Shown: positions 327 through 15,616 of the stretch, piece after piece
Layout of the letters: each line of letters begins with the position of its first letter
Position numbering within the stretch: position 1 is the stretch's first letter
Source of the DNA: an uncultured Pygmaiobacter sp.
Lineage (GTDB): Bacteria; Bacillota; Clostridia; Oscillospirales; Ruminococcaceae
Length of the DNA: 29,708 nt
Direction of reading: 5' to 3'
NCBI GenBank assembly: GCA_944386485.1
Contig: CALXBG010000028.1
Coordinates: forward strand, 1 to 29,708
Notes under the pieces: model-generated
Told to the model about the DNA's origin: nothing
The model's database searches: none
What the model saw: the letters and a program-made list of their open reading frames with translations, nothing else
Position numbers and translations under genes: made by a program

Positions 327-355
327 TTGAACTGCATAGAAAATAACGCTATTAT
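327..355 (+). promoter_or_regulatory. Candidate sigma-A promoter for the four-gene operon
   Basis: -35 TTGAAC (327-332), 17 nt spacer, -10 TATTAT (350-355). It lies in an AT-rich island about 60 nt upstream of the ATG at 415. RBS AGGAGG sits 8 nt before the start. Confidence 0.4.
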
Positions 356-414
356 TAAAAAGAACAAAGCATTTTCCAAAAACGCAAAAGCGAGTTTGGC
401 AGGAGGGGAATGAA

Positions 415-1836
415 ATGGCGCTTTTTGATGTAATTGAGTATGAGGGTTCCGGCGAAGTTCTGATCCACCGGGCCGCACAGACCGATTTCAATACCCACAG
501 CACACTGGTGGTGCGGGAGTCCCAGAAGGCGATTTTAATCCGCAATGGACAGCTGGCGGATATCTTTGATCCCGGACGGTATGTGTTGCACACCCAGAAC
601 ATTCCCATCCTCAGCAAGCTGGTCAACCTGCCCACCGGCGGGGTGTCTCCATTTCAGTGCGAGGTCTACTTCATCAACCAGGCAATCTCCCTCAACCGCA
701 AATGGGGAACCAGTAGTCAGGCGCGGGTTTACGACCACACCTATGATCTGATCCTCACCATCGGTGCAAACGGCGCGATGGGGCTGCGGGTGCGGGATCC
801 GCGGCAGGTGCTGCTCTCGGTGGTCGGGACCGAGCCGGATCTGACCGGGGATCAGTTCCTGGACTATTTCCGGGACACCATCTCGATGAAGATCAAGGAG
901 TACATCGCACGGGTTATGCAGCGCCCTGAGATTGACTTTATGGTGCTTGACGCAAATCTCAGCGAGTTTTCAAACCAGGCCAAGGCTTTGCTCAACGAGG
1001 AGCTTGCCGAATACGGGGTGGAGATCTGCAACTTTTCAATCAGCAACATCCAGATTCCAGACGAACAGTATGAGGCGGTCTTGGTGATGCAGAACAAGCG
1101 TCATCTGCAGCGCCAGCGGGAGTTTGAGATGAAAGGCGACCTGAACCTGCAGATGATGAAGGCACAGGGGGATCGCGCCAGCCTGATGGTGGACGCCCAG
1201 GGAGAAAACGAGCGGCGCAAACTACAGGCGCTCACCGACGTCGAGATCGCGAATCTGCAGATCGACGTCGACGCTCACCGCACCGAGCGGATGGCGCAGG
1301 CTGAGGCGCGCGCCCGGGCTGTGCAGGGTTACAACTGGGCAGATCAGCAGCAGGCCGAGGTGGCGAAACTCTACGCTGCATCCGGCAGCCTGCAGAACAA
1401 CCCCGCCAATATGTTGGCGCAGGCGCCGATGGCGCTGGCCTTCGGAGATCTGCTTCGAGACAATGTCGAGCCGGTGATGAATCCCAACTACTCCAATCCC
1501 GGAATGAACTTCGGCAACGGGTTTCCCGGACAGAGCGGCGGGGAACAGCACAGCCCGTCCGGCGGCTTTGGCGCGCCGGAGGATTTCTCCCTGGGCATCG
1601 AGCCGGCCGACCCCACGACACCGGCCGACCCCACCGCACCGGAGGCACCGGCCGAACCGGCGGTGGCAGCGATCTGTCCGAACTGCGGCGCTTCGCTTGC
1701 CGGCAGCCCGAAATTCTGCCCCGAGTGCGGCACCCGACTGGCGCCGGCCGAGCCGGTGCGGTGTGGTTGCGGTCATCTCTTTGGGCCAAAAGAAAAGTTC
1801 TGTCCCGAGTGCGGCAGCCCCCGCCCCGGCGTCTAA
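415..1836 (+). CDS. SPFH/Band-7 family protein (YdjI-like, Band_7_1 type) with a low-complexity P/G/A linker and C-terminal double zinc ribbon
   Basis: 473 aa ORF with a strong RBS. The N-terminal ~330 aa resemble the SPFH 'virion core protein-like' family (MALFDVIEYEG...VLIHR...). The linker is NPNYSNPGMNFGNGFPGQ...PADPTAPEAPAEP. The C-terminus has two CxxC...CPxCG ribbons (CPNCGASL...CPECGTRL and CGCGHLF...CPECGSP). The Pfam assignment is from memory. Confidence 0.6.
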   Translation: MALFDVIEYEGSGEVLIHRAAQTDFNTHSTLVVRESQKAILIRNGQLADIFDPGRYVLHTQNIPILSKLVNLPTGGVSPFQCEVYFINQAISLNRKWGTSSQARVYDHTYDLILTIGANGAMGLRVRDPRQVLLSVVGTEPDLTGDQFLDYFRDTISMKIKEYIARVMQRPEIDFMVLDANLSEFSNQAKALLNEELAEYGVEICNFSISNIQIPDEQYEAVLVMQNKRHLQRQREFEMKGDLNLQMMKAQGDRASLMVDAQGENERRKLQALTDVEIANLQIDVDAHRTERMAQAEARARAVQGYNWADQQQAEVAKLYAASGSLQNNPANMLAQAPMALAFGDLLRDNVEPVMNPNYSNPGMNFGNGFPGQSGGEQHSPSGGFGAPEDFSLGIEPADPTTPADPTAPEAPAEPAVAAICPNCGASLAGSPKFCPECGTRLAPAEPVRCGCGHLFGPKEKFCPECGSPRPGV

Positions 1837-1905
1837 AGATTTCAACAATCCGGCAGCGACGGGTGGAAAACCCGCGGCCCGGAAAGGCAGAGGAGGAAAA
1901 CGGAA

Positions 1906-3849
1906 ATGGCGGTATTCAACTGCAAGATGTGTGGGGGCGACCTCGAGGTGATCGACCCTGAAAACGGATTGGCACAGTGCGAGAGCTGCGGCAAGAAGCA
2001 GACGTTGCCAAATGAACAGGATGAGCGGAAGGCCAATCAGTTCAACCGGGCCAATCACTACCGGCGCAGCAATGAGTTTGACCGGGCGGCGGACGCCTAT
2101 GCCAAGATTCTGGACACCGATCCCGGCGAGGCGGAGGCCTATTGGGGCATCGTGCTCTGCCGGTACGGCATCGAATATGTAGAGGATAAAAAGACGATGC
2201 GCCGGGTGCCGACCTGCCACCGCACCCTGACCCGCTCAATCCTGCAGGACCCCGATTACCTGCAGGCGCTCTCCTGTGCAAAGCCGCTGGCCCGGCTGCA
2301 GTATGAGGAGGAGGCGCAGGAGATCGACCGGCTGCAGAAAGAGATTCTCGCGCTGGCGAGTAAGGAGGAGCCGTTCGATATCTTCATCAGCTACAAGGAG
2401 ACCGACGAGCGCAGCGGTCAGCGCACGCCTGACAGCGTGTTGGCACAGGAGATCTACACCGCGCTGACGCGAGAGGGATACAAGGTCTTTTTCTCCCGCA
2501 TCACGCTGGAAAACCGGCTCGGACAGGATTACGAACCGATCATCTACGCCGCGCTGCGCTCAGCGAAGGTGATGGTGGCGGTGGGTACCCGGCCGGAGTA
2601 CTTTTCGGCTCCCTGGGTGCGCAACGAGTGGAACCGCTATCTCGGGATGATGGAGGAGGCGCAGGGCGGCAAAACCCTGATCCCGGTCTACCGGGAGATG
2701 GACCCTTACGACCTGCCGGAAGAGTTCTCCCATCTGCAAGGGCTTAACGCCGCCAACATCGGCTTTTTGCAGGATCTGCTGCACGGCATCGAGAAGCTGA
2801 TCCGGCAACCCGCGCAGCCGGCCGCAGCCGCAGCGCCGGCTGCGCCGTCGGGTGGAGCCAATGTGGAATCGCTGCTGCAGCGGGTGGATTTCTTCCTCGA
2901 GGACGGCAGGTTTGACAGCGCGCGGGAGTACTGCAACCGGGTGCTGGACATCGCCCCGACCGATTGGCGGCCCTATCTGGATCTGGTGCTCTGTGCGAGA
3001 CAGCAGCGCACCGCCGCGGCCCTTGCCGCGCAGGAGTCCAGCATCCACACCGACGAGAATTTCCAGAAGGCGCTGCGGTTTGCACCAAAGGAAAAAAAGG
3101 AGGAGCTGATCGGCTACGCGGCCGCGGCCTTTGCTGCCGAGCAGAGCAAGGTCGAGGAACTCTGCGCCGCCGAGCAGCAGAAGGAAGAGGGCTTGTTGCG
3201 TGAGTTGAAACCGCTCGAAGAACAGCTCGCACAGCCGCTGGCGCAGCTGCGGGAGAAAAAACAGAAGGCCGACGAGCTCGGGCGCCAGATTGCAGAGGAG
3301 GAAAAAAAGCAGCAGGAAGCGGCGGCGCAGAAGGCCCAGCACTACAATGTCAAACAGGCGCTGTATCAGAAATATAAACAAGAGAACGCAAAGGGCAATG
3401 TGGTCGAGGGCAATCTATTTGGCGATCTGGTCGGCTCTTTGATCCTGGCCGCGATCTGTTTTGTCATCGGGCTGATCGCCGGGGCGCTGTTCTTTCCACT
3501 AGGGGTCATCATCTGGGTACTGGGCGGAATTTCGATTCTTTTTTCGAATGTACAGACATATAGAAACAGGGAACTTCAGACCGACAGAAAAGAATACCAA
3601 AAACAGGGGAAAGAGGCCAAAAAGGCGCTGACGAAAGAGATGTCCAGTAAGCTGAAGGTGCAGTCGCTGGTCAAAGAAAAAAATCGATATGATGTTGAGA
3701 GCAACCAGATTTATCAGGTCAACAAGGCGCCGATGGATCAGCGCGCTGCGCTGATCCGACAGATCAACGACTGCAGAGAGAAGGTGCAGCAGAGCAAGCG
3801 CAGCCAGGAGGAGAATCTCAAATTGGCGCAAAAGATAGGGATTGTCTGA
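1906..3849 (+). CDS. Membrane-anchored TIR-domain protein: N-terminal zinc ribbon, helical (TPR-like) region, TIR domain, two TM helices, C-terminal K/E-rich coiled coil
   Basis: 647 aa. RBS AGGAGG 9 nt upstream. N-terminal ribbon CKMCGG...CESCG. TIR motifs at about aa 155-260: PFDIFISYKETDE, GYKVFFSRITLENRLGQDY, AKVMVAVGT and SAPWVRNEW, the last carrying the conserved Glu. Hydrophobic stretch LILAAICFVIGLIAGALFFPLGVIIWVLGGISILF at about aa 500-545. A lysine-rich coiled coil follows to the end. Confidence 0.75.
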   Translation: MAVFNCKMCGGDLEVIDPENGLAQCESCGKKQTLPNEQDERKANQFNRANHYRRSNEFDRAADAYAKILDTDPGEAEAYWGIVLCRYGIEYVEDKKTMRRVPTCHRTLTRSILQDPDYLQALSCAKPLARLQYEEEAQEIDRLQKEILALASKEEPFDIFISYKETDERSGQRTPDSVLAQEIYTALTREGYKVFFSRITLENRLGQDYEPIIYAALRSAKVMVAVGTRPEYFSAPWVRNEWNRYLGMMEEAQGGKTLIPVYREMDPYDLPEEFSHLQGLNAANIGFLQDLLHGIEKLIRQPAQPAAAAAPAAPSGGANVESLLQRVDFFLEDGRFDSAREYCNRVLDIAPTDWRPYLDLVLCARQQRTAAALAAQESSIHTDENFQKALRFAPKEKKEELIGYAAAAFAAEQSKVEELCAAEQQKEEGLLRELKPLEEQLAQPLAQLREKKQKADELGRQIAEEEKKQQEAAAQKAQHYNVKQALYQKYKQENAKGNVVEGNLFGDLVGSLILAAICFVIGLIAGALFFPLGVIIWVLGGISILFSNVQTYRNRELQTDRKEYQKQGKEAKKALTKEMSSKLKVQSLVKEKNRYDVESNQIYQVNKAPMDQRAALIRQINDCREKVQQSKRSQEENLKLAQKIGIV

Positions 3850-3853
3850 ACCG

Positions 3854-6580
3854 ATGCGCCGTGAGACAGGGGGGCAGCACAAGGCCGAAAACCCTGTGCT
3901 GCCCTTTGAGAAAGGATGTGGGGGAAGGATGCCGCAGTTTGTGCCGATCCCGCTGAAAAACGGGCAGGTTTTGGGCTGTGTCGCCTATGAGATCACCTCG
4001 GTGCCGCAGGCATCGCAGGAGGGCGCAGCGGCGCAGACGGAGAATGAGACCGCTTTTTACAATCTGCTGGGCGAGGTGTACCGCTACTGCGCACCGGATG
4101 CGGCGGTGCTTGAGCTGCTCTGGTCGGCTCAGCCGGTCGAAAACCAGCCCCATGCGGCCCAGCTGCATCTGTACGCGGTGGCGCGGATGCTCTGCGCCGA
4201 CCGCAAGGAGCTGGAAACCCGGCTGCAGGCAGTCTGCGACAACCTGACCACCCGGTTGCAGGCCGGCGGCTTTCGGTTTGCCGAGGCCGACCTCGAGGCG
4301 CTGCGACCCTTTCTGCCTGACGGCGCCGCCTGTGTCAACGCGGTGACCAAAGCGGAACAGTGCACGTTGCACCCGCAGGCCGCCTTCCCTTATTATTATG
4401 CCGAACCGCTGCCCGAGCACGGCACCGACGATTTTGCGATGCTCAGCCGCACGATGGCCGAGCTGCCGGGCAGCGCGGTTTCGTTTCAGCTGTTGCCCAC
4501 CGGCTATACCGCCGCCGAGAGCGCCGCGTTGGAACAGATGCAGTCGCTGCTGGCCCAGGTTGTCGGGGGCACCACGATCGGCGGGCGGGCCTACCGCGAC
4601 CCGCTGGCCCAACCGGCGCTGGACGCGATCGGCCATACCGCCGCCCGGCTGCGCCAACCGGTCTTTCGCTACAACATCCTCGCCTTCGGCAACCAGAGCC
4701 AATGCGCGGCGCTGACCGCGCAGATCATCAGCCTGCTGCGCTGTGGCAGTGCCCGCAGCTTCGTCACCGTCAACCTCAACGCCGAACGGTTGGATCTGCG
4801 CCGCCAGTTCGCCTGGTATCCCTGGCAGATCAACCAAAAATTGTTGCGCGGTTACCGCAATACCCAGCTCTGGAGCCGGGTCAAGCTGCCGCAGGCCCTG
4901 TTTCGACTGCCGATGCTGCTCGGCGCCGAGGAGGCGACCACCTTTTTCCGACTGCCGCTGGGGGGCGACAAGCTCGCCGGATTGCCCAGCCACAGAGCGT
5001 TGCAGAATGCCCAGCAGCTCGACCCGCGGGTGGTTGCGGGGGAGAACCTTCAATTCGGGATACTGGCGGGGGGCGTCGCGCCGATCGGCTGCCCGCCCAA
5101 GAATCTGACCAAGCACATGTTGGTGGTCGGCAAACCCGGTACCGGAAAGACCACCTTTTCGGTCAATCTTCTGTTGCAGCTCTACCAGAAGGGGGTTCCC
5201 TTTCTTGCGATCGAGCCGACCAAAACCGAGTATCGGGCGATGATCGACGCCATCCCGGATCTGCAGATCTTCACCCCCGGCAACAACGGGGTCAGTCCCT
5301 TTGTCATCAATCCGTTCATTCCGCCCAAGGGGATCACCGTCGAGCAGTTTGTGCCCAGCCTTGCCAGCGCATTCAAGGCGGCATTCTCGATGCCGTCCCC
5401 GCTGGACACCATCTTTCAGGCCGCGATTCAGGAGGCGTATGTCCAGTATGGTTGGCGGGATTACAGTACCGCCGCCGACCCGGACGTCACCCCGTTCGGG
5501 CTGCACGAGTTTATCCTCGTGTTCAAGAATCTCATCGCCCGGGAAAAGTACAGCGCCGAGGTCAAGGGCAACCTGCAGAGCGGCGGTGTGTTGCGGCTGC
5601 GCAACCTGATTGAACAGAATGCCAACATCTACGACACCACCCACTCGGTGCCGCTGGAGGATCTGCTGGTGCACCCCACCGTGCTGGAACTCAACGCGAT
5701 CGACAATGAGGAGCAAAAATCGGTGCTGATGGCGCTGCTGCTCATCAATATCTGCGTTTATACCAAGCACAACCATCTGGGAGACGGCAAGCTGAAGAAC
5801 GCGATTTTGATCGATGAAGCGCATGTCCTCTTCAAGGCGGGCGGATCCAGCGAGGGGGCGAACACCACCGTGCGCTCACTCGAAAATATGCTCGCCGAGA
5901 TCCGCTCCTACGGCACCGGCATCATCATCGCCGACCAGTCCCCGGCGGCAGTCGGAGCCGAGGTGGTAAAGAACACCGAGGTCAAGACGGTGTTTCAGCT
6001 GGTTGACGTCGGCGACCGCAAGACCATCGCCGCCACCACCAACATGACCGCGGAACAGGAGGAACAGATTCCCCGGCTCGGGGTCGGCGAGGCGTTTATC
6101 AGCTATGGCCTGCTGGCCGAACCGGCGCTGGTGCAAACCCCCGATGTGCGGGAGGAACAGGGGATCCGGCTGAGTGTCTCGAACGAAGAGGTACACCGCC
6201 GGATGACCTATTGGGACAGCCACGGGCCGCTGTTGATCCCGTTTTACGAGTGTGGACAGTCGACGGTCTGCGCCGGCGGCTGCGATCTGCGGCTGCGCAG
6301 CGATGCGGCCTTCTTCGCGGCGCGGTTTGCCCAGAGCTACGGCGGCAAGATCACCGACGCGAAGAGCCTGTGCGCCTATGCCCGCGCCCTCGACGGCTGG
6401 CTGGATGAGCAGACCCCGCAGAGCGACCCGGAACGGCGGCGCCGGCTGCACAACTGCACCAAGATCCGGCTGATCCGCCGGATGATGCAGCAGCGGGAGA
6501 TTCCGCAGAGCCCCGCCGCCTATCAGAAACTGCTGCAGGCCGCCCTGGCCGAGGGAGCCGCCCCGCAGCCCGAAGCATAA
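3854..6580 (+). CDS. HerA/FtsK/VirB4-superfamily P-loop ATPase (DUF87-like) with a ~420 aa uncharacterised N-terminal region
   Basis: Long ORF abutting the TIR gene stop. Start is uncertain: ATG 3854, ATG 3929 (MPQFVPIPL, preceded by gggggaagg) or the TTG at 3842. Walker A MLVVGKPGTGKTT at about nt 5120-5155. Walker B ILIDEAHVLF at about nt 5800-5830. The following R...GTGIIIADQSP arginine-finger/sensor motif is typical of HerA-like ATPases. No TM segment. Confidence 0.6.
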   Translation: MRRETGGQHKAENPVLPFEKGCGGRMPQFVPIPLKNGQVLGCVAYEITSVPQASQEGAAAQTENETAFYNLLGEVYRYCAPDAAVLELLWSAQPVENQPHAAQLHLYAVARMLCADRKELETRLQAVCDNLTTRLQAGGFRFAEADLEALRPFLPDGAACVNAVTKAEQCTLHPQAAFPYYYAEPLPEHGTDDFAMLSRTMAELPGSAVSFQLLPTGYTAAESAALEQMQSLLAQVVGGTTIGGRAYRDPLAQPALDAIGHTAARLRQPVFRYNILAFGNQSQCAALTAQIISLLRCGSARSFVTVNLNAERLDLRRQFAWYPWQINQKLLRGYRNTQLWSRVKLPQALFRLPMLLGAEEATTFFRLPLGGDKLAGLPSHRALQNAQQLDPRVVAGENLQFGILAGGVAPIGCPPKNLTKHMLVVGKPGTGKTTFSVNLLLQLYQKGVPFLAIEPTKTEYRAMIDAIPDLQIFTPGNNGVSPFVINPFIPPKGITVEQFVPSLASAFKAAFSMPSPLDTIFQAAIQEAYVQYGWRDYSTAADPDVTPFGLHEFILVFKNLIAREKYSAEVKGNLQSGGVLRLRNLIEQNANIYDTTHSVPLEDLLVHPTVLELNAIDNEEQKSVLMALLLINICVYTKHNHLGDGKLKNAILIDEAHVLFKAGGSSEGANTTVRSLENMLAEIRSYGTGIIIADQSPAAVGAEVVKNTEVKTVFQLVDVGDRKTIAATTNMTAEQEEQIPRLGVGEAFISYGLLAEPALVQTPDVREEQGIRLSVSNEEVHRRMTYWDSHGPLLIPFYECGQSTVCAGGCDLRLRSDAAFFAARFAQSYGGKITDAKSLCAYARALDGWLDEQTPQSDPERRRRLHNCTKIRLIRRMMQQREIPQSPAAYQKLLQAALAEGAAPQPEA

Positions 6581-6592
6581 AGGAGAAACGCG

Positions 6593-8167
6593 ATGTGGGA
6601 CGAAGAATTTGACAGCGATCTCGACACCGGAAGCGACGTCGATTGCGATGTCGACGACGGCGGTTATGACCTCGATGACAGCGGATCCGATCTGCAGGTC
6701 AATCTTGACGAGAGCGTGGATTTCGATCTTGCCGATGTCGAACCGGCCGAACCCGCGGATCTCGATCTGGATGCAGAAGACTTTGAGGAACCCGCGGCGG
6801 ATCTGCCGGTGGAGCTCGAGGATGCCGGCGATCTTGCCGACGGCATGGCGCTGGATGAGGTCGAGGTGGCCGACCTCGGCGATCCCGAGGAGGAGCCGTC
6901 CGCCGGCGGCGAAATCAGCGATGAGCTGCTCGAGGCTTGGATGCAGGCTGAGCAGGAGGGGATACAGGAGTCCGGCGAAGAGGACGTCAAGGTACTGCGC
7001 CGGGATCCGGATGAGCTGATGGAGACCGGGATGCAGAATGTCGAGGAAATCCTCGACGTCCGCCGCGACGACATGATGGATAAGGGGATGAGCGAGGAGG
7101 AGATTGAGCAGGCAATCGCACAGGAGCGGGAGGCGCTGCGGTGGGAGTTTGTGCAGGACGCCTTCCCCGAGCGGTTTGAAGCACAGGAGCCCGAAGAGCT
7201 CGAAATGGAAGAGACAGCCGACCTTGCAGTAAAGGAAGAGAACGACACCGAAGAGGTTACCGATCTTGCAGCTGCACAGGATCTCGACCTGGAACAGGAT
7301 GAGGCGGATGCCCTGGAAACAGAATCGGAGGAGCTGGATGAGACGGCGGATACAGGGCTTGAGGGGACTCAGGTGACAGACGCCGATCTAGAGGAGGAAA
7401 CCGAGCCGGAGGACGATCTCGCCGAGCCGCTGGAGGAAGAGGAGATTTCCGAGCCGCTGGCAGAGGAACTGTCAAAAACCGAGCTGGAGGATACGGCGCT
7501 GCCCGAAGACGTTTCGGATGAGGAGGAAGAAGCGCCCGATCTGATGCGGGAGCTGGTGCGGCAGAATGTGCAGGACGTCCGGCTGCCGCGAGAAGGCGGC
7601 ACCTGGGCCGACCCCGCGCAGGCGGGGGAGGGGCTCTGGATACCGGACGACGATGCCGAACTCTTCTGGAAGGAGGAAGCCGGCGGCTCGATGACCGGCG
7701 CCGAGTTCAAACAGCGGTATGGGGTCGAGGGGGTGACCTACCGGGACGGAGAACCGGATTTTGAACCGTTCGAGGACGAACTGTTGGGCCATGTTGAACT
7801 GGAGGAGATGCCGACCGAGCGCACCGGGGCAGAGGGCAGCTATGCCGCCGCAACCCGCGCCGCCGCCGACCGGCTCGGAATCAGCGAGCAGGAGGTCGAG
7901 CAGCGGATGGAGGAGCGGGGGTTGACCTGGCACGAATGTGGCGACCGGCGAACGGTGCGGGCGATTCCGACCGAGGTCAACGCCGCGTTTCCCCACACCG
8001 GCGGAATCAGCATCCAGCGCGGCGTGCGGGCGATGGCGGAAGAACTAGCCGACCGGTATGGAACCGTGCGGCTGGATCGCAACGGCCCTGCCGGAACAAC
8101 CGAAGGGTTGACCGAGGCCCGCGGTGCCGTCCGGAGGGAATACCGTGGACAAAAGCGGAAGCTGTGA
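6593..8167 (+). CDS. Extremely acidic (D/E-rich) low-complexity protein with a small, more ordinary C-terminal region
   Basis: 524 aa. RBS AAGGAG 7 nt upstream. The first ~340 aa are dominated by D, E, L and A (DLDLDAEDFEEP, DEVEVADLGDPEEEP, EEETEPEDDLAEPLEEEE). The C-terminal ~180 aa are of normal composition. Translation is tightly coupled to the ATPase gene, with a 12 nt gap. Confidence 0.6.
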   Translation: MWDEEFDSDLDTGSDVDCDVDDGGYDLDDSGSDLQVNLDESVDFDLADVEPAEPADLDLDAEDFEEPAADLPVELEDAGDLADGMALDEVEVADLGDPEEEPSAGGEISDELLEAWMQAEQEGIQESGEEDVKVLRRDPDELMETGMQNVEEILDVRRDDMMDKGMSEEEIEQAIAQEREALRWEFVQDAFPERFEAQEPEELEMEETADLAVKEENDTEEVTDLAAAQDLDLEQDEADALETESEELDETADTGLEGTQVTDADLEEETEPEDDLAEPLEEEEISEPLAEELSKTELEDTALPEDVSDEEEEAPDLMRELVRQNVQDVRLPREGGTWADPAQAGEGLWIPDDDAELFWKEEAGGSMTGAEFKQRYGVEGVTYRDGEPDFEPFEDELLGHVELEEMPTERTGAEGSYAAATRAAADRLGISEQEVEQRMEERGLTWHECGDRRTVRAIPTEVNAAFPHTGGISIQRGVRAMAEELADRYGTVRLDRNGPAGTTEGLTEARGAVRREYRGQKRKL

Positions 8168-8172
8168 ATAAA

Positions 8173-8220
8173 AAGAGCCGGGATCTTGGACCGTCACGCC
8201 CAAGATCCCGGCTCTTTCTT
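8173..8220. terminator. Bidirectional rho-independent terminator between convergent genes
   Basis: Stem of 17 bp, aagagccgggatcttgg / ccaagatcccggctctt. It is flanked by aataaaa on the left (T-run for the minus strand) and tcttgcgg on the right. Confidence 0.6.
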
Positions 8221-8235: not shown

Positions 8236-9069
8236 TCAGCGGTCGGCGGGGCGGGTCATCCGCACCGCGGCGAAACCGGCCAGCAGCGGCAGAGCCACAC
8301 AGGCCGCGACGCCTGCTGCGTTGCCAACGAACAGAAAGTAGATCAGTCCGACTAGCCCAACCAACATCAACAGTACCGAAAAGAGTGCAAGACCGCGGCG
8401 CAGCCCCTCGGCTCGATTTCGACTAAGTACGGCGGTCAGAACGTCTTCAGGCACGGCTGCGATCTGCTGGGCACCGGCCGCTTCCAGCTCATCGGCGTCT
8501 CGAAAACCCCACAGTACGCCGCAGCTTGCGGTTTTGGCATTCTGGGCGGTGTGGATGTCGACGTTGCTGTCCCCGACATAGAGTACCTGATCGGGATGCA
8601 GCCCAAAGTCAGCGATTACGCGATTGAGTGCGGCGGGATCGGGTTTAACCAGCGTACCCTGCTGGCCCGCAACCGAGTCGAAAATGCCGGGGAAGTATTG
8701 TTCAACGATCTGGGTGACAAATTCATGTGGTTTGTTTGAGACCACGCCGAGCCGAATCCCTTTAGCTTTAAGGGCGGTCAGCAGCTGTGGGATGCCGGGA
8801 TAGGGAACGGTGCAGTCCCGCATATGGGCCTGATAATGGGTGTCAAACAAACCGCTTGCCCGCTCGACGGCGGATTCATCGGTTCGCAGCTGCTCAGGCA
8901 GCATCCGCAGAATCAGATTGCGTCGTCCATCTCCGACAAGGTGCTTGTATTCCTCCACGGTGTAGGTGGGCAGCCCCATCTCGGTCAGCGCAAAATTGCA
9001 GGCATTGGCAAGATCCTCGATGGTGTTGAGCAGAGTGCCGTCGAGGTCGAAAATCACAGCTTTGATCAT
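8236..9069 (-). CDS. HAD-superfamily hydrolase (phosphoglycolate phosphatase-like, HAD-IA) with a C-terminal two-helix transmembrane tail
   Basis: MIKAVIFDLDGTL motif I, SNKP motif II and K...GDSNVD motifs III/IV. True start is ATG 9069 (RBS AAGGAG, 9 nt spacer); the ORF-track start at 9090 is an upstream GTG. The last ~55 aa are hydrophobic: LALFSVLLMLVGLVGLIYFLFVG...VALPLLAGFAAV. Confidence 0.75.
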   Translation of the reverse strand: MIKAVIFDLDGTLLNTIEDLANACNFALTEMGLPTYTVEEYKHLVGDGRRNLILRMLPEQLRTDESAVERASGLFDTHYQAHMRDCTVPYPGIPQLLTALKAKGIRLGVVSNKPHEFVTQIVEQYFPGIFDSVAGQQGTLVKPDPAALNRVIADFGLHPDQVLYVGDSNVDIHTAQNAKTASCGVLWGFRDADELEAAGAQQIAAVPEDVLTAVLSRNRAEGLRRGLALFSVLLMLVGLVGLIYFLFVGNAAGVAACVALPLLAGFAAVRMTRPADR

Positions 9070-9121
9070 AAAAACGTACTCCTTTGGCACAGCCGAACGA
9101 TGTTCGGCCAGAATATTTGGT

Positions 9122-10498
9122 TCAGAGATTGAATTCTAACTCCCGCGCCCGGAAAAACTCGATACCGCGCAGATGATAGGTCCGGCGGGTGGGAGTGAAG
9201 ATCCGCAGATCACATCGCCCAGCAGAGGCAGCGGTCGGGAACCGGGTGATCAAAAGGGAGAGGTCATCGGTATAGAGTGAGACCAGATACCGGGTGAACC
9301 CACGGCAATAGCTGACCGAAAGGGTGCGGTTTTCATTGCGGCAAAACCCCTCACGGAAAAAACCCTCAAGACTGCATAGCAGAGCGCCTAGTGCGAGCAG
9401 AGCCAAAATCCAGAGCAAAAAGCTCACCTGCGGCAGCACCCGCAACGAGACGATTCCCAGCGAGAGAACCAGAATCAGCAGCGAGCCGGGTTTCCACAGA
9501 TACTGCGGCAGGCTTTTGCGGCGGGGATTGCACAGCGGCCGGTCAGGCGGGCAAAACTCGGGCAGCAACTGGCGCAGCTGTGGGACACTTTTTTTGCTCA
9601 GGGTAAAGATTGGCAGGTCCTCACCGCGAAAGCAGCCCGCGCTCAGATAGACCGGGCAGCGGCGCAACAACCGTGCGGCCGGGGTAATTCGCAGACTGCT
9701 GGCGGTAATCGCGTCGACAAAGACCCGCCGTTCGGTATGGGTCAAAAGACCGCCTCGGCTGAGCAGCACACCACCCGAGCGGGCGGCGGTAAATCGGTAG
9801 GTCCGCAAAAGGCTGTTGAAAAGAGAAAGGGCGAAGACCAGCAGCCCTATCGTTACCACAAGCGAAGCGCCTGCCGGCACAAAAGCGGTCAACAGATGCT
9901 CCAGCCGGGTGATCCCGTCGATCGCGAGTGCCCGAAAATCCTCCCCGAGAAGAGAAAAGATTCGGCGGGCGGAAAGAACCGAAAAAAAGGCGGTGGCGAT
10001 CACATTTGCCGACAGCAGCATGAAGAAAAGCCGTTCGGCCCCGACCGGAGTAAAGGCACTCGCCGCAGCGGCATCAGGCACCAGACGGCGGGCAAGCCGA
10101 CGTGCCTGACGGGCGGATAGGGTGATTTTGATTCTGCGCAGACCGCTGCCTGCGCGAAAATAAATGGTCAACACCGAGGCCCCGAACAGGCGGCAGAGAA
10201 GGTTGCGCTGTAACTCCACCGCGCTCACCTGCGCGGTAGAGGTGCGGTTGCAGCGGCGCAGCAGAACACCACTTCGAATCATCAGTACACCGTCGGTCAA
10301 TGAGAGGGAACTGGCTCGATGCATTGCCGCCAAAATCCCACCGCAGGCAAGCAAGATGGCAAACTCCTGCATCAGGGTTCGCCAGGCGGAAAAAAAGGCA
10401 AAATCCAGTACTGCCTGCAAGACCGGCAGCAGGCAGAGCAGCAGAAAGTACTTGACATATTTTAGAAAATGCAGCGGGTGTAATCGAATGGGGTGCAT
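9122..10498 (-). CDS. YdbT-like membrane protein with repeated bacterial PH (bPH_2) domains
   Basis: Start reassigned to the internal ATG at 10498, which overlaps the upstream gene stop (ATGA). The N-terminus MHPIRLHPLHFLKYVKYFLLL carries hydrophobic helices. Repeated units of the type R...L..R......L..DG bPH-like follow. Arrangement matches the B. subtilis ydbS-ydbT pair. Confidence 0.55.
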   Translation of the reverse strand: MHPIRLHPLHFLKYVKYFLLLCLLPVLQAVLDFAFFSAWRTLMQEFAILLACGGILAAMHRASSLSLTDGVLMIRSGVLLRRCNRTSTAQVSAVELQRNLLCRLFGASVLTIYFRAGSGLRRIKITLSARQARRLARRLVPDAAAASAFTPVGAERLFFMLLSANVIATAFFSVLSARRIFSLLGEDFRALAIDGITRLEHLLTAFVPAGASLVVTIGLLVFALSLFNSLLRTYRFTAARSGGVLLSRGGLLTHTERRVFVDAITASSLRITPAARLLRRCPVYLSAGCFRGEDLPIFTLSKKSVPQLRQLLPEFCPPDRPLCNPRRKSLPQYLWKPGSLLILVLSLGIVSLRVLPQVSFLLWILALLALGALLCSLEGFFREGFCRNENRTLSVSYCRGFTRYLVSLYTDDLSLLITRFPTAASAGRCDLRIFTPTRRTYHLRGIEFFRARELEFNL

Positions 10499-10914
10499 CA
10501 ATCCTCGCCTCCCGTCAGCAGTGCGGTTTGCAGCCGCTCGCTGTCCGCAGGTGATAACCCGATCAGAATTACCGTCGCGCCCGAGGTAAAAACGACCATC
10601 CCGCAGGCGCCCAGCAATCGGCCCAGCGGGGTGGAGAAGGTCCACACACCGGTCACGCTCCGCAGCGGAACCCGGCGCAGCGTGCGGTAAAAAAAGCCCC
10701 GCTCAACCGAAAATTCTCGCCCGCTTACCCGCACCCGGTACCCTAACTGGTGCAGTAGTGCGAGTCCCACCGAAGCCAACGTGCCGCAGAGAAAGACAAC
10801 CAATGCCGCTAGCCAGTTCCAAAATAACCAGAGCAGAAAACCGCAAACCCCAAACAGGCCGGTCAGCCAGAGAGCAGCCAGCATCGCGCCTTTTCGGGTT
10901 ACGGTATAATTCAT
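10498..10914 (-). CDS. YdbS-like small membrane PH-domain protein
   Basis: Real start is ATG 10914 (MNYTVTRKG...; RBS GGAG 8 nt upstream). The upstream 120 codons of the track ORF overlap the neighbouring gene and are rejected. The protein has two N-terminal TM helices and then a bPH-like domain (YRVRVSGREFSVERGFFYRTLRRVPLRSV). Confidence 0.55.
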   Translation of the reverse strand: MNYTVTRKGAMLAALWLTGLFGVCGFLLWLFWNWLAALVVFLCGTLASVGLALLHQLGYRVRVSGREFSVERGFFYRTLRRVPLRSVTGVWTFSTPLGRLLGACGMVVFTSGATVILIGLSPADSERLQTALLTGGED

Positions 10915-10945
10915 AAGAAATACTCCATTTAGTATAAAAACTCGG

Positions 10946-12352
10946 TTACCAGGTTGGATCAATTTCCTGCCCGTCCTGCAGATTCGAGAGCACGGAGAGC
11001 AAACGGGAAAGATAACTGCTGCGAACAGCGTACTGTGCGGTTCCATCAATCTCGATCGCATGCCGCTTGACGCCATAGGGGATAAACCGGATGACCTCGG
11101 TACGGTAGCCGGAGTCCGGCAGCTCAGGGCCGGCAAGCGGCTCGTCGTAAACAAAGGTGATGACCGCGTCGGGCGGAATGTTCTGCATCGGGTCTTCCAT
11201 CTCATATTCCGCCCGCAGCGAGCAGAGTAGACGGTAAAACTGCTCGAAGGTCTCCTGTGAGAGAAATTCTCCATTGAAAGAAACGCTGGTTTCGGTCAGG
11301 TCGAACAGATAGGTTTGCCCGGACGCCTCGATCTGAATCTCCCGCAATGTATCCAGCGCGGGTGCCATCAGATACCGGCTCATCAGCGCATAACGGGTCA
11401 CCCCGATCCAATGAGCTTCGCTCAGATTAAGGCGATAGACTGCGGGGACCCCTTCACGATACAGATAGTAGAAATTGCCGGTAAAATTACCAATCCGCAG
11501 GGTGACGCTCTGGCCCAATAAGGTGAAAGAAAGGGTGGAATAATCGCTTTCATCGGACAAGCCATACTCTTTCAGTTCAGGTTCGCTGGGATAAAGGGTC
11601 ACCACACCATCGGCCCGCAGCGTGCTGAGCTGGTCAAAATAGGTCGTAAAGGCATCGGGGTCAACGTAGCTCAGCCGATCCCCAGCCAGCTGATAAGAGT
11701 AGCTCAGTTCCATCCCGTCGGTCTGGGGGATGGGCAGACGGTCCAGCCGCAGCGTCTGACCGTTTGTGGTCCACTCGATACTGCTGGGCAGCGCATTGCC
11801 CGCTTCCTCTACCGGAGAGAGGGAGAGATCCAGATAACTGCTGATATCAGACAGCAGATACCGGATGCTGCTGCGCCCGATCTGGTAGACCGTGTTCCCG
11901 CCGTTGACCCGGATATAGTATTGATCTGTTCCGGTAATCTGTGCACCGACCTCGATGGAGATTCCGCCCCCGTCGGAATAGGTGGCCTGCGCCTGTGCGA
12001 GAGGAAAATCAAATCCGTAGTCGATCGGTGCGTCGGGATCCTGCACCAGCGGGCCGACTGCCGTCAGGCTGGTACACTCCCGCGCCAGCTCGTCGCAGGC
12101 AGACTGCGAGAGAGGAAATCCGGCAAGCCGGTCACAGGAATAGACCCCGTCTTCTGCGGTGACCGAATAGGCGCCGCCGGCATTGATAATCTCGACCGAG
12201 GCGAAGGCGTTCTGTGCCCGGTCCGAGAGGGTGACCTCGGTCGGTGCTTCGCTGCGGGAAGAGGGGAAAAATAGCGATAGCGAGACGGCGAGGACCCCAA
12301 GCACCGTAAAGGCGAGCAGAGAGGTAAAAAATTGTTTGTTGATCTTCATCAA
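10946..12352 (-). CDS. Secreted or membrane-anchored protein of unknown function (DUF4340-like), first gene of the minus-strand operon
   Basis: 468 aa. RBS GGAGG 6 nt upstream. N-terminal signal anchor KQFFTSLLAFTVLGVLAVSLSLFF. The mature part is S/T/Y/D-rich. The domain name is assigned from memory only. Confidence 0.5.
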   Translation of the reverse strand: MMKINKQFFTSLLAFTVLGVLAVSLSLFFPSSRSEAPTEVTLSDRAQNAFASVEIINAGGAYSVTAEDGVYSCDRLAGFPLSQSACDELARECTSLTAVGPLVQDPDAPIDYGFDFPLAQAQATYSDGGGISIEVGAQITGTDQYYIRVNGGNTVYQIGRSSIRYLLSDISSYLDLSLSPVEEAGNALPSSIEWTTNGQTLRLDRLPIPQTDGMELSYSYQLAGDRLSYVDPDAFTTYFDQLSTLRADGVVTLYPSEPELKEYGLSDESDYSTLSFTLLGQSVTLRIGNFTGNFYYLYREGVPAVYRLNLSEAHWIGVTRYALMSRYLMAPALDTLREIQIEASGQTYLFDLTETSVSFNGEFLSQETFEQFYRLLCSLRAEYEMEDPMQNIPPDAVITFVYDEPLAGPELPDSGYRTEVIRFIPYGVKRHAIEIDGTAQYAVRSSYLSRLLSVLSNLQDGQEIDPTW

Positions 12353-13826: not shown

Positions 13827-13903
13827 GCGTCCGTAGCTCAGTTGGATAGAGCGTTCGGCTCCGACCCGGAAGGCCGCAGGTTCGAATCCTGTCGGGCGCA
13901 CCA
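13827..13903 (+). tRNA. tRNA-Arg (anticodon CCG), CCA encoded
   Basis: Hand-folded. Acceptor gcgtccg/cgggcgc, D arm gctc/agagc, anticodon stem ttcgg/ccgga with loop ctCCGac, T arm gcagg-TTCGAAT-cctgt, discriminator A, then CCA. Confidence 0.85.
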
Positions 13904-14020: not shown

Positions 14021-14071
14021 GAAGGTACAAAATTCCTCAGAATGAAAACAGGATCAAAAGGAGGGAGTCAG

Positions 14072-15616
14072 ATGAACTGTCCCAATTGTGGCAATCCCGT
14101 TTCAGAGGGAGCTTCTTTCTGCCCGTTGTGTGGGTCAAGGGTGAATGCGGCGTTGTCTGCACAGCACCAGGAACAGTCGGCGCCGGGCAATCCGGTACAG
14201 CCGGTGCAAGGGGAGAGCGGCCCGCAGACGGCCGCGCAGCAGGGCAATGACCAGTCTGGCTATACGCAGCAGAGTTACCCGCAGCAAGGTTACACGCAGC
14301 AGAGCTATGGCCAGCAAAGCTACACCCAGCAGAACTACGGCCAACCGGGGTATGGCTACAATCAGCCGGATATGGGACCGCAGCGGCCGGTCAGTCCCTA
14401 TTATCAGCGGCAGTTTGCCCTGATCGCGCAGGGCCAGCGCAGCCGGTTTAACTGGGCGGCTTTCTTTCTCGGGCCGTATCATGCGGTCTACCGCGGTCAT
14501 ACCAAGCGGTTTCTCGCCCTTTACCTGCCGCTGCTGATCCTGACCTTGGTCAACGAGGTCGCGCTGATTGCGGCATTTGGAGCGAATAACCTTTCTCTGA
14601 TCGGGATCACGGTGATTCTCAGCTGGGTTATCTCCCTGGTTTCCATCGGCCTTGCGATCTATAATGGACTTACCTTTAATAAAAGCTATTTTGCCCTCTG
14701 TGGCGGTGACCCGCGGGTGCCATCCTGCGGCGGACGGCTTGCCGTGACCATCATCACGGTGACGCTGGTCAGCATTGTGGCCGCGGTTGCCCTTTTCGGC
14801 GTCATGATGAACCAGGCGTTCAGCCAGCTGGAAAATTTGGGTGAGTATCCCTTCGATAACTCTTACGTTGAGCAGCTGCCCCCTGACGGTACCGTGCCGC
14901 AGGGCGGACAGCAGGAGCCGCAGACCGGTTCGCAGTCCGCTGTGACCGGCGGTACACAGGATATTACCGGGCTGCTCGTTGATTACGGCGACGTCGTCGC
15001 CGATCAGCTGTACCTGCTGGGCTGGAACGACCCTGATATGACCGAGGCGGAGCAGATTGTCAACAGCGCTTATCTGTTCCGCTCGGATAAGGTGAGCATG
15101 ATTGACGCCCTCAGCACCGCCTCGCAATCGATCTACTGGGAGGAGGTACAGCCCAGCGAAACAGTTTTTGAAGGAGCCAGATATTTTTCCGTCTACTGTA
15201 CGCTGGAAGAGGGAGACATCGTCTTTGACTTCGCCATCGGCGGGGGCAATGTGATGGTTTTCGGCTGCTATGTCTGGGAGGGCGAGAACTATGTCGGGCT
15301 GAATGAGCAGCAAGCTTCTGCGTTGCTGGAAGCTCTGTACAGCCGGGCGGGCGTACCCCAGTCGATTCCCTATCAGGCGCGCGGAAGCTGGCGGACCTCT
15401 GCCGGTGAGGAGTTCGTGCTGGATGGCGAGACTCTCAACGGACAGCCCTATACCCTCTGGTTTATGAGCGAAGATATTCTTGCGGTCTATCTGGACAACG
15501 TCGAGGGAGTAGAGGGCGAGTATTACATGATGATAGAGGGCCCGATCCTCAATGTCTGGCAGTACGACGCGAGCGGGGCGATCATCAACGATCTGTACTA
15601 TACAAAAGCCAACTAA
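14072..15616 (+). CDS. Zinc-ribbon membrane protein: N-terminal ribbon, Q/Y-rich repeats, DUF2628-like TM module, C-terminal extracytoplasmic domain
   Basis: Start at ATG 14072 (RBS AGGAGGGAG). Ribbon CPNCGNPV...CPLCGS. Repeat tract SGYTQQSYPQQGYTQQSYGQQSYTQQNYGQPGYGYNQ. The FNWAAFFLGPYHAVYRG motif is followed by 3-4 TM helices and a ~290 aa C-terminal domain. Confidence 0.6.
   Translation: MNCPNCGNPVSEGASFCPLCGSRVNAALSAQHQEQSAPGNPVQPVQGESGPQTAAQQGNDQSGYTQQSYPQQGYTQQSYGQQSYTQQNYGQPGYGYNQPDMGPQRPVSPYYQRQFALIAQGQRSRFNWAAFFLGPYHAVYRGHTKRFLALYLPLLILTLVNEVALIAAFGANNLSLIGITVILSWVISLVSIGLAIYNGLTFNKSYFALCGGDPRVPSCGGRLAVTIITVTLVSIVAAVALFGVMMNQAFSQLENLGEYPFDNSYVEQLPPDGTVPQGGQQEPQTGSQSAVTGGTQDITGLLVDYGDVVADQLYLLGWNDPDMTEAEQIVNSAYLFRSDKVSMIDALSTASQSIYWEEVQPSETVFEGARYFSVYCTLEEGDIVFDFAIGGGNVMVFGCYVWEGENYVGLNEQQASALLEALYSRAGVPQSIPYQARGSWRTSAGEEFVLDGETLNGQPYTLWFMSEDILAVYLDNVEGVEGEYYMMIEGPILNVWQYDASGAIINDLYYTKAN

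Follow-up and report, generated by a model that had tools for sequence, protein, structure and literature searches.

Several described systems have components that resemble those of the locus studied here. The ATPase of type IV secretion systems (T4SS), VirB4/TrwK (R388; T. pseudethanolicus VirB4), is similar to protein C of this locus in both its N- and C-terminal domains. HerA-type ATPases occur in Sir2-HerA/Nezha, in DUF4297-HerA and as DndH of DndFGH. A further set of ATPases, termed 'EccE3-HerA', adjoins type III-A CoCoNuT loci and is set apart from protein C by its description, which makes no mention of SPFH, TIR or acidic proteins (Bell et al. 2024, PMC11090510). In polymorphic toxin systems (for example T7SSb with EssC and LXG), a conserved N-terminal module precedes exchangeable C-terminal toxins, and an FtsK/HerA-superfamily ATPase is encoded alongside, both as found here; the toxin domains here also come from the same Pfam families (WHH, Colicin-DNase, TNT, Gln_amidase and Endonuclea_NS_2). 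[quoted passage not shown] Thoeris and other TIR defence systems share with protein B a bacterial TIR_2 domain in which the Glu typical of NADase-type TIRs is conserved.

We analyzed a 29,708-nt stretch of DNA (hereafter the window) from contig CALXBG010000028.1 of an uncultured Pygmaiobacter sp. It carries an operon of four genes (A to D) that probably encodes a new bacterial conflict system. Protein C differs from T4SS VirB4/TrwK in having an additional C-terminal helical domain with four conserved Cys, and it is accompanied by an SPFH protein, Zn-ribbon-TPR proteins and acidic-leader toxins; no VirB3, VirB6, VirB8, VirB10, VirD4, relaxase or pilin was found by Pfam, NCBIfam and PADLOC searches of proteins A to D and cluster representatives or in precomputed Pfam annotations of 20+ neighbourhoods. 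Compared with Sir2-HerA, DUF4297-HerA and DndH, the N-terminal domain of C is VirB4-like rather than the classical HerA barrel. The effector here comes via an acidic leader and is an HNH DNase instead of SIR2 or DUF4297, neither of which was detected in the operon with Pfam or PADLOC, and HerA-coupled defence and DndFGH contain nothing equivalent to the membrane and SPFH components. Unlike the leaders of polymorphic toxins, the leader here is low-complexity and polyacidic, not LXG, WXG, RHS or a signal peptide, and the DNase effectors lack an immunity gene; neither a type VIIb EssC-type triple ATPase, with its FHA domains, TM helices and tandem FtsK-type ATPase domains, nor a WXG100 protein is present. 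Finally, in contrast to Thoeris, the TIR domain lies within a membrane protein of the Zn-ribbon-TPR type and is an optional element of the family, no ThsA-like protein (SIR2/Macro-SLOG) is encoded in the operon and PADLOC gave no Thoeris match.

Operon layout and genomic context

The four genes run in one direction on the plus strand and form a compact operon with the following features:

327 to 355, plus strand: candidate sigma-70-like promoter upstream of gene A (TTGAAC-17-TATTAT, 9/12 consensus matches)
415 to 1836, plus strand: gene A (473 aa), SPFH protein with a double zinc ribbon
1906 to 3849, plus strand: gene B (647 aa), zinc ribbon, TPRs, TIR and TM hairpin
3869 to 3907, plus strand: 13-bp GC-rich hairpin in the B-C spacer
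3929 to 6580, plus strand: gene C (883 aa), VirB4-like ATPase
6593 to 8167, plus strand: gene D (524 aa), acidic leader and predicted HNH/colicin-type DNase
8172 to 8217, no strand: bidirectional intrinsic terminator (18-bp stem, A-run before, T-run after)

This layout bears out the first-pass annotation, which had proposed four co-directional genes between a promoter and a bidirectional terminator. The promoter is a weak candidate because the region contains four such sites versus 1.9 expected in shuffles. The terminator hairpin is strong (dG -37.7 kcal/mol, z -7.0, equalled by 0/200 shuffles) and marks the end of the operon; because it lies directly 3' of D, there is no space for an immunity gene after D. 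The A-B and C-D spacers measure 69 and 12 nt, against the 70 and 12 nt given earlier. The B-C gap had been put at about zero and protein C at 900 aa, but the most likely start of C is the ATG at 3929, which is preceded by a GGGGGAAGG ribosome-binding site. The database form of the protein is likewise 883 aa, and homologues align from residue ~7. With this start, the B-C gap is 79 nt. The spacer folds with a dG of -31 kcal/mol and a marginal z of -1.9, and its hairpin is possibly an attenuator or a processing/stability element. As also noted before, a tRNA-Glu gene with its own terminators lies upstream (50-124), and the GC content of the operon (0.617) is close to that of the remaining window (0.593).

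The operon is accessory, not core, because relatives with 76-78% identical ATPases carry the same four-gene order between other flanks, and the operon is missing beside HAD in a relative whose DUF4340-bPH-bPH-HAD synteny is preserved. Membership of a conserved core genome, which the first-pass annotation had named as an alternative, does not fit these data. Across the wider family, loci are flanked mostly by housekeeping genes and not by defence islands; some have defence or mobile neighbours, namely type I-E CRISPR-Cas (L007), HipAB (L005) and a phage capsid-like gene (L056).

Protein C is a VirB4-like ATPase

Three regions were distinguished in protein C:

3929 to 5038, plus strand: N-terminal VirB4-NTD-like domain
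Walker A GKPGTGKT at 5129 to 5152 and Walker B AILIDEAH at 5801 to 5824, plus strand: P-loop domain
6251 to 6457, plus strand: C-terminal helical domain with the four conserved Cys

Protein C had been assigned to the HerA/FtsK superfamily, and its DUF87/HerA_C match and Walker motifs uphold that assignment. Both halves of the protein have a VirB4-like fold, and together they give it the two-domain organisation seen in type IV secretion ATPases. The large N-terminal region that was previously called unknown has the fold of a VirB4 N-terminal domain. At the level of sequence models, matches to NCBIfam VirB4/TraC were far under the cut-offs (25 bits versus 590; 13 versus 567), and the best NCBIfam match, the DNA-translocating ATPase CedD (1.4e-19), was also under its cut-off. 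Identity as a defence-type HerA was rejected: HerA_antiphage scored 27.6 bits against a cut-off of 800, and the N-terminal domain is VirB4-like instead of the classical HerA barrel. PADLOC returned only single-domain matches for C (mad8, DndH and HerA models), of which the HerA models cover only aa ~607-770 (E 1e-8 or weaker). Apart from a PDC-S66 match in protein B, these were the only matches in the PADLOC run, in keeping with the earlier remark that no named defence system corresponds to the operon.

The VirB4-like fold and the CedD match would suit a remnant or minimal conjugative or mobilisable element, in which the ATPase would act in DNA transfer and the acidic proteins would mimic DNA, for instance as anti-restriction cargo. 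Integrase genes flanking two loci (cluster c18) and tRNA genes adjoining 3/13 loci checked point the same way. However, no sampled operon encodes a relaxase, coupling protein, VirB6/VirB8 or pilin, the acidic proteins bear toxin domains with intact active sites, and IMG/VR gave a single match. We regard a mobile element as very improbable.

Proteins A and B

The features of proteins A and B are as follows:

490 to 1080, plus strand: SPFH/Band_7_1 domain of A
1675 to 1815, plus strand: C-terminal double zinc ribbon of A
1915 to 2160 and on to about 2300, plus strand: 'head' of B, an N-terminal CxxC..CxxC zinc ribbon and TPR
2380 to 2748, plus strand: TIR domain of B (DIFISYK at 2377-2397, WVRNEW at 2614-2631, Glu241 codon at 2626-2628)
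2866 to 3003, plus strand: second TPR of B, followed by a coiled coil
3418 to 3570, plus strand: hydrophobic TM hairpin of B (aa 505-555), followed by a charged C-terminal tail

Profile searches recovered the domains already called in both proteins: Band_7_1 (1.2e-45) and a double zinc ribbon (DZR, 1.3e-7) in A, and TIR_2 (3.5e-14, 53.8 bits versus a cut-off of 28) and a zinc ribbon in B. Further matches of B were to PADLOC PDC-S66 (2.8e-5) and NCBIfam FxsC_Nterm (2.1e-5). The middle of A consists of a coiled coil and a P/G/A-rich linker, and a search for a TM helix in A found none. Protein B lacks a signal peptide and is TM-anchored, its hydrophobic hairpin corresponding to the two TM helices proposed earlier; its head is homologous to stand-alone Zn-ribbon-TPR proteins. 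The Glu of WV[KR]NEW, which the earlier reading had singled out as the TIR Glu, is invariant in an alignment of all eight TIR-bearing homologues, and from its fold and this catalytic-type residue the domain is predicted to be an NADase-type TIR.

The zinc-ribbon starts of the membrane partners and the YdjI-like architecture of A, a likeness by description and in architecture only (PMC8581546), bear on a rival already raised in the first-pass annotation, a YdjGHI/PspA-like module for envelope stress or membrane maintenance. In that case, the SPFH protein would bring partners to sites of membrane damage, and the remaining genes would be incidental. YdjG is membrane-bound and starts with CxxC, like the heads found here. 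The likeness extends only halfway, however, with PspA_IM30 matching neither the four proteins nor any sampled neighbourhood. The module here is tied to an ATPase and toxins and is patchily distributed and accessory, not part of a sigma-W stress regulon; its variable core consists of an intact DNase, TIR and other toxin domains, and the ATPase-toxin pair is constant while an SPFH protein is found in only 26/45 loci. Envelope maintenance seems a highly unlikely function.

Protein D is an acidic-leader effector

Protein D comprises:

6593 to 6976, plus strand: acidic leader, starting MWDEEFDSDLDTGSD
6980 to 7171, plus strand: conserved helical module (aa 130-193)
up to about 7540, plus strand: second acidic stretch
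about 7541 to 8092, plus strand: HNH/colicin-type DNase domain (LTWHECGD at 7922-7945, EVNAAFPHTGG at 7973-8005), with a basic tail after it

The polyacidic character originally described for this protein holds for aa 1-328, which are 40% D/E and 4% K/R, but the DNase at the C-terminus had been overlooked. This region matches WHH (3.1e-8, 33.7 bits, cut-off 25.1) and Colicin-DNase (8.5e-7, 30.2 bits, cut-off 25). Across 14 homologues there is no variation at W446, H447, E448, C449, D451, N463 and H468-TGG (LTWHEC.D...N...H-TGG), and the region is predicted to be an intact HNH/colicin-type DNase domain with its catalytic His and Asn/His metal ligands present. Because it carries this toxin domain, D appears to be an effector, not the decoy or regulatory layer previously suggested. 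No immunity gene directly follows the DNase effector in the window, L052, L056 or L065; in L065 the SPFH gene lies directly 3' of it. The lack of an immunity gene suits a cis-acting, regulated effector.

The ATPase is linked to acidic-leader toxins across genomes

The ATPase family comprises 2,660 clusters at 50% identity (E<=1e-30). It is patchily distributed, and the groups that carry it include Firmicutes, Bacteroidota, Verrucomicrobiota, Planctomycetota and Actinomycetota. Most hosts live in the gut or rumen, and the family is common in the Firmicutes and Bacteroidota there. Acidic-leader proteins were found in 31/45 loci, and the gene next after the ATPase encodes one in 26/39 loci with enough downstream sequence; the criterion, an acidic N-terminal half, is also satisfied by 6.4% of background ORFs. 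ATPase-effector gaps range from -17 to +49 nt, often with translational coupling, and the leaders begin MDEEY/F..., with M-[DGS]-[DE]-E-[FY]..D.S as the common start motif across loci. The effectors thus begin with acidic N-termini, and none has a signal peptide, LXG, WXG, PAAR or RHS. The ATPase is therefore linked to an acidic-leader toxin family-wide. A pairing of TIR with HerA analogous to SIR2-HerA, as first proposed, is not borne out: the regular partner is the acidic-leader protein, and the TIR domain, present in only 5/45 loci, is optional in the family.

The C-termini of the effectors vary. WHH/Colicin-DNase domains were found in the window, L052-58 and L065, Endonuclea_NS_2 in L007, Gln_amidase in L012, L019 and L039, and TNT in L022; HExxH metallopeptidases also occur. 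The best explanation is a family in which a VirB4-like ATPase is followed directly by an acidic-leader effector with a swappable C-terminal toxin, the operon in the window being a reduced member. Tightly coupled small ORFs (c14, c10 and ORFs of 74-156 aa) come after the Gln_amidase and metallopeptidase effectors, with spacings from -4 to +14 nt; those after several non-nuclease effectors are conserved and look like immunity genes, and a comparison with known Imm families gave no match. Many loci encode additional small membrane proteins, including a YidD-domain protein, and in L065 TM-hairpin proteins of 301 and 122 aa are encoded just upstream of the ATPase, the position held by B in the window. 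A TM-hairpin gene before the ATPase recalls the VirB3-VirB4 gene order.

Many of these observations would also fit the main rival, a system dedicated to exporting toxins in antagonism between bacteria, which we consider a serious though not a leading possibility. The ATPase, seated on small membrane proteins and scaffolded by SPFH, would read the acidic leader and drive the unfolded toxin across the cytoplasmic membrane, and the acidic-leader proteins would be a new class of polymorphic toxins. The conserved leader with variable toxins from the polymorphic-toxin repertoire, the tightly coupled small ORFs, the hairpin and YidD-domain proteins, and hosts from dense communities all favour export. 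S. aureus offers an example of a flotillin scaffold supporting a secretion machine, FloA and the T7SS. More generally, SPFH/flotillin scaffolds are described as supporting secretion machines (PMC8656257). In the narrower form of an unrecognised protein-translocation system, in which the VirB4-like ATPase threads toxins by their polyacidic, DNA-like leader across the cytoplasmic membrane with help from small TM-hairpin and YidD-like proteins under SPFH organisation, the proposal is conceivable but doubtful.

Against export, the DNase effectors of the window and three other locus types have no immunity gene, so a trans-acting DNase would kill kin, and the small downstream ORFs resemble no known Imm family. 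No VirB6, VirB8, VirB10, VirD4, cell-wall hydrolase or outer-membrane component was detected, though diderms and monoderms share this gene set, and VirB4 sequence models score far under their cut-offs. A cytoplasmic TIR domain that is catalytically intact by motif would also make little sense on a putative structural subunit.

A tentative model of abortive-infection-type defence

The reading that we prefer, although tentatively and at somewhat short of an even chance, is abortive-infection-type defence in which a membrane-docked ATPase controls a toxin through its leader. The ATPase ring would dock at the cytoplasmic membrane via the TM-hairpin protein B and be organised there by the SPFH oligomer A. 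During synthesis of D, the ATPase would seize the acidic leader at the ribosome exit and hold the DNase in a sequestered or inactive state. The polyanionic leader may resemble DNA and serve as a pseudo-substrate for a pore of the DNA-pump type, or it may inhibit the nuclease in cis. An invasion-linked trigger, presumably foreign DNA or membrane perturbation, would lead to ATP-driven threading or release that frees the DNase. The TIR domain would then degrade NAD+ or make a signal, and the cell would be killed or arrested. We infer toxin action inside the producer, the trigger and all physical contacts in this model; the catalytic motifs of C, D and the TIR domain are intact at the sequence level.

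Defence is favoured by the ATPase-effector linkage (26/39 loci versus 6.4% of background ORFs), by variable toxin domains on a common acidic leader, and by a cytoplasmic TIR that has a conserved catalytic-type Glu and belongs to a TM-anchored protein lacking a signal peptide. DNase effectors without immunity genes, a gene set that is shared by monoderm and diderm phyla and includes neither outer-membrane nor cell-wall parts, and accessory status with some defence or mobile neighbours add to this. Weighing against defence are the lack of a PADLOC system match, the mostly housekeeping flanks, the optional TIR (5/45 loci), and a two-domain T4SS-ATPase build whose N-terminal domain docks on a membrane channel complex. 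It also counts against defence that the effectors have the architecture and domain repertoire (TNT, Gln_amidase, WHH) of secreted polymorphic toxins, that immunity-like small ORFs come after several non-nuclease effectors, and that many members have additional small membrane proteins, including a YidD-domain protein.

Significance

Despite the size of the ATPase family (2,660 clusters), PADLOC, Pfam, NCBIfam and literature searches yielded neither a named system nor a curated model or paper covering the gene cluster. The rule of a VirB4-like ATPase followed by a polyacidic-leader toxin points to a new handling of toxic cargo, with a suicide effector held in check or a toxin exported. It opens to experiment the role of VirB4-type ATPases outside conjugation, the organisation of membrane machines by SPFH proteins and the means by which DNases without immunity proteins stay harmless. 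The leader motif would also be a simple handle with which to find many new toxin domains in metagenomes. If the translocation reading is true, the family would represent a new secretion pathway and a new polymorphic-toxin class across Firmicutes, Bacteroidota and other phyla.

Organization of the operon

The arrangement described in the first-pass annotation, four co-directional genes downstream of a tRNA gene with its own terminators, was recovered. The four genes (A to D) and their signals are listed below.

50-124: tRNA-Glu, followed by two terminator-like hairpins
327-355: sigma-70-like site TTGAAC-17-TATTAT, weak (such sites are ~2x as frequent as in shuffles)
415-1836, + strand: gene A, Band_7_1 SPFH domain (1.2e-45), coiled coil plus P/G/A-rich linker, double zinc ribbon
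1906-3849, + strand: gene B, zinc ribbon, TPR, TIR_2 (3.5e-14), second TPR, coiled coil, hydrophobic hairpin
From ATG 3929, + strand: gene C, 883-aa ATPase
6593-8167, + strand: gene D, acidic leader and C-terminal WHH/Colicin-DNase domain
8172-8217: terminator hairpin with an A run and a T run on its flanks (dG -37.7 kcal/mol, z -7.0), operon end

The gene C ORF opens at TTG 3842, but we preferred ATG 3929 as the start; a good ribosome-binding site accompanies this codon, the database entry gives a protein of 883 aa, and alignments with homologues begin at residue ~7. This leaves 79 nt between genes B and C, a spacer with a 13-bp GC-rich hairpin (3869-3907) followed by CCCUUU. The hairpin, with a marginal z of -1.9, could set the stoichiometry of the upstream versus the downstream genes. 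An RNA leader or riboswitch was rejected, as an Rfam scan matched the tRNA and nothing more. Long antisense ORFs opposite genes B to D (such as 3818-5824, - strand, 668 aa) were dismissed as by-products of high GC because they overlap conserved + strand genes and have no support.

Genomic context

The operon is accessory. The rest of the window consists of housekeeping genes (HAD, bPH_2, DUF4340, MatE, a GluQRS-like gene and his genes), and the gene beyond the terminator encodes a HAD hydrolase on the opposite strand. A DUF4340-bPH_2-bPH_2-HAD block (8236-12352, - strand), whose HAD has a C-terminal hydrophobic extension, is syntenic with positions 6701-10831 of L060-L062 at ~65% protein identity. 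This synteny ends exactly at the operon boundary, and the syntenic relative (HAD 65% identical) keeps the block with no operon beside it. Relatives that do carry the operon have it in other contexts. The GC content of the operon is 0.617, compared to 0.593 for the remainder of the window.

Ordinary genes make up most flanks of the family loci, though some loci adjoin an integrase, a phage capsid-like gene, HipAB or type I-E CRISPR-Cas. For the idea of a tRNA-targeted island, tRNA genes adjoin only 3 of the 13 loci checked. We rejected a prophage or phage origin, given a single relative in IMG/VR and no phage genes in the window.

Elsewhere in the window, a 524-aa protein (14042-15616, + strand) encoded after tRNA-Arg (13827-13903) starts with a zinc ribbon (Zn_Ribbon_1, 1.7e-7), continues through a long low-complexity linker rich in Q, Y and G, and also has several TM helices and a globular C-terminal part. 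HMMs of the zinc-ribbon heads from the operon family did not match it.

Distribution and gene content of the family

Relatives of the ATPase number more than 1,200 among 90% clusters, and a full profile search (E<=1e-30) placed 2,660 clusters at 50% identity in the family. Matches in genomes came from Oscillospiraceae, Lachnospiraceae, Bacteroidota, Opitutaceae, Kiritimatiellia, Planctomycetaceae, Thermoanaerobaculia, Anaerolineae and Dactylosporangium, a patchy host spread suggesting horizontal transfer. HMMs were derived from clustered ORFs of 45 non-redundant loci; the resulting counts describe a biased sample, as loci were located with two peptide patterns and ORFs were called by a crude longest-ORF greedy scheme.

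Gene families in the 45 sampled loci
ATPase: 45/45
Acidic-leader protein (strongly acidic N-terminal leader, swappable C-terminal toxin): 31/45
SPFH protein: 26/45
~227-aa 4-TM/coiled-coil protein directly after the SPFH gene (cluster c2): 21/45, absent from the window
Homologues of the B head (Zn-ribbon-TPR proteins): ~20/45
~238-aa protein, unknown fold (cluster c4): 13/45, absent from the window
~168-aa TM protein with a YidD membrane-insertion-factor domain, 9.8e-15 (cluster c7): 7/45, absent from the window
TIR domain: 5/45

The nearest relatives, with ATPases 76-78% identical to that of the window, have exactly the same four genes. A ~197-aa Zn-ribbon-TPR protein (cluster c5) is conserved in many family members and absent from the window, and conserved genes missing from the window lie upstream of the ATPase in L014, L016-L020, L022, L023, L026, L027, L034, L037 and L046. 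A third gene order of the same system is found in L065/L066 (3992-11532), where a 301-aa Zn-ribbon-TPR-coiled coil-TM hairpin protein is followed by a 122-aa TM hairpin protein, the ATPase, a 325-aa acidic DNase and an SPFH protein with zinc ribbons. It is flanked by radical SAM/SPASM genes in one genome and by FHA, ParA-like and Ser/Thr kinase genes in another.

The ATPase is VirB4-like

Gene C encodes a VirB4-like ATPase. Sequence searches gave weak HerA/DUF87 matches, and C scored far below the cut-offs of curated HerA, VirB4, Ced and DndH models, including NCBIfam HerA_antiphage, CedB, CedD and VirB4. Across 82 homologues, the invariant positions include R659 and both Walker motifs (A, GKPGTGKT at aa 401-408; B, AILIDEAH at aa 625-632), along with many others. 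The C-terminal helical domain carries four cysteines (C775, C781, C785 and C843; CX5CX3C...C; nt 6251-6457), of which three are invariant and one is at least 90% conserved in the same homologues; they may form a metal or Fe-S site. This four-Cys site is not known to have a counterpart in VirB4 or HerA. The protein resembles the "EccE3-like domain plus VirB4-like ATPase" protein adjacent to type III-A CoCoNuT loci, the function of which is unsettled (PMC11090510).

Acidic-leader toxins accompany the ATPase

The constant partner of the ATPase is an acidic-leader effector. Of the 39 loci whose downstream sequence was long enough, 26 have a first gene after the ATPase (start -17 to +49 nt) that is acidic in its N-half; only 6.4% of background ORFs pass the same filter. 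These proteins share a related start motif, MDEEY/F..D.S.DTS (MWDEEFDSDLDTGSD in D of the window), and their leaders range from ~50 to ~1,000 residues.

Residues 1-328 of D are 40% D/E and 4% K/R, and its C-terminus matches WHH (3.1e-8) and Colicin-DNase (8.5e-7). In an alignment of D with its relatives, a conserved helical module (aa 130-193) lies between two variable acidic stretches, and the conserved nuclease domain comes last. LTWHEC.D, N463 and H468-TGG are invariant among nuclease homologues, indicating that the HNH site is intact; the proposal that D is a decoy or regulator was therefore abandoned. All 34 of 34 homologues of the nuclease domain are short proteins, those inspected have acidic N-termini, and one again sits between a DUF87 ATPase and an SPFH-DZR gene. 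No sequence relatives of this domain were found in the PDB, even at E<=10. An orphan HNH nuclease of the D type (L063/L064, 8001-8786; 261 aa, from Dorea sp. and annotated as an HNH endonuclease) interrupts a ribosomal/housekeeping operon between trmD and rplS and is followed by a 130-144 aa coiled-coil ORF; more than 100 contigs carry it.

The C-terminal toxins vary between loci: HNH/colicin DNases in the window, L052-58 and L065; Endonuclea_NS_2 in L007; Gln_amidase in L012, L019 and L039, and in L005 two genes downstream of the ATPase; and a TNT NADase in L022. Others end in an HExxH metallopeptidase or lack any domain. Small conserved ORFs come after several of the Gln_amidase and metallopeptidase effectors (gap -4 to +14 nt). 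None of these small ORFs matched Pfam or known immunity families, and one encodes a PqqD-like protein that is probably unrelated. The DNase effectors examined (window, L052, L056 and L065) have no downstream immunity gene.

Export, with the toxin acting in a neighbour cell, is a possible reading that we hold with some doubt. It is favoured by the VirB4 build, including the N-domain through which T4SS ATPases dock to their membrane complex, by the polymorphic-toxin logic of the effectors, by the immunity-like small ORFs in part of the family, by several small membrane proteins, one with a YidD domain, and by the fact that secretion machines are known to use SPFH scaffolds. That the cluster represents a new translocation pathway is less likely than not yet a serious possibility; a conjugation remnant is very improbable.

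The TIR domain is an optional insert

The pairing of TIR with a HerA-like ATPase, put forward in the first-pass annotation as a SIR2-HerA analogue, did not stand as the organizing principle, since a TIR domain occurs in only a few of the sampled loci. At its N-terminus B has a CxxC..CxxC zinc ribbon; its hydrophobic hairpin is ~45 residues long (aa 505-555). Its head (Zn ribbon, TPR and the motif YGIEYVEDP..R.PTCHRT) occurs elsewhere alone or fused to other C-termini, for example DUF6273, and the L065 head-coiled coil-TM hairpin protein has the same build without the TIR, so we regard the TIR as an optional insert. Wherever a TIR is present, D[IV]FI[CS]YK and WV[KR]NEW are invariant, including the Glu that serves as the catalytic residue in NADase-type TIRs. 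From its zinc ribbon, TM hairpin and lack of a signal peptide, B is predicted to hold its TIR in the cytoplasm. In L005 (12722-19893) and L007 (6384-15713), two or three paralogous genes of the Zn-ribbon-TPR-TIR type accompany a head-DUF6273 fusion, which suggests that a second effector position diversifies too.

[quoted passage not shown] Unlike that system, the operon has no PspA, and we give an envelope-stress module very little credence.

A conflict module with a candidate role in defence

No named defence system fits the cluster, as first proposed: PADLOC returned isolated domain matches and no system, and the cluster goes unnamed in all three curated libraries, Pfam, NCBIfam and PADLOC. 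A full-text literature search of incomplete coverage found no description, so an earlier one elsewhere is possible; a Dnd/HerA paper and a domain-centric defence paper do not mention it. We rate the cluster as belonging among ATPase-coupled toxin-effector conflict systems, so far unnamed in the libraries and literature searched.

We conclude firmly that the operon is a module of the conflict type, with a VirB4-like ATPase and an acidic-leader toxin at its core and SPFH scaffolds and Zn-ribbon-TPR membrane proteins as frequent partners. The polyanionic leader might serve as a DNA-like pseudo-substrate for a DNA-pump-type ring or as a cis inhibitor of the nuclease, and the TPR heads could conceivably bind the acidic N-terminal motif. 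We lean tentatively towards defence, in which the toxin would act within its producer in a cis-acting, abortive-infection-type role. The DNase without an immunity gene, the cytoplasmic placement predicted for the TIR, the identical gene set in monoderms and diderms, and closest structural relatives that include defence ATPases point this way, especially for the operon of the window.
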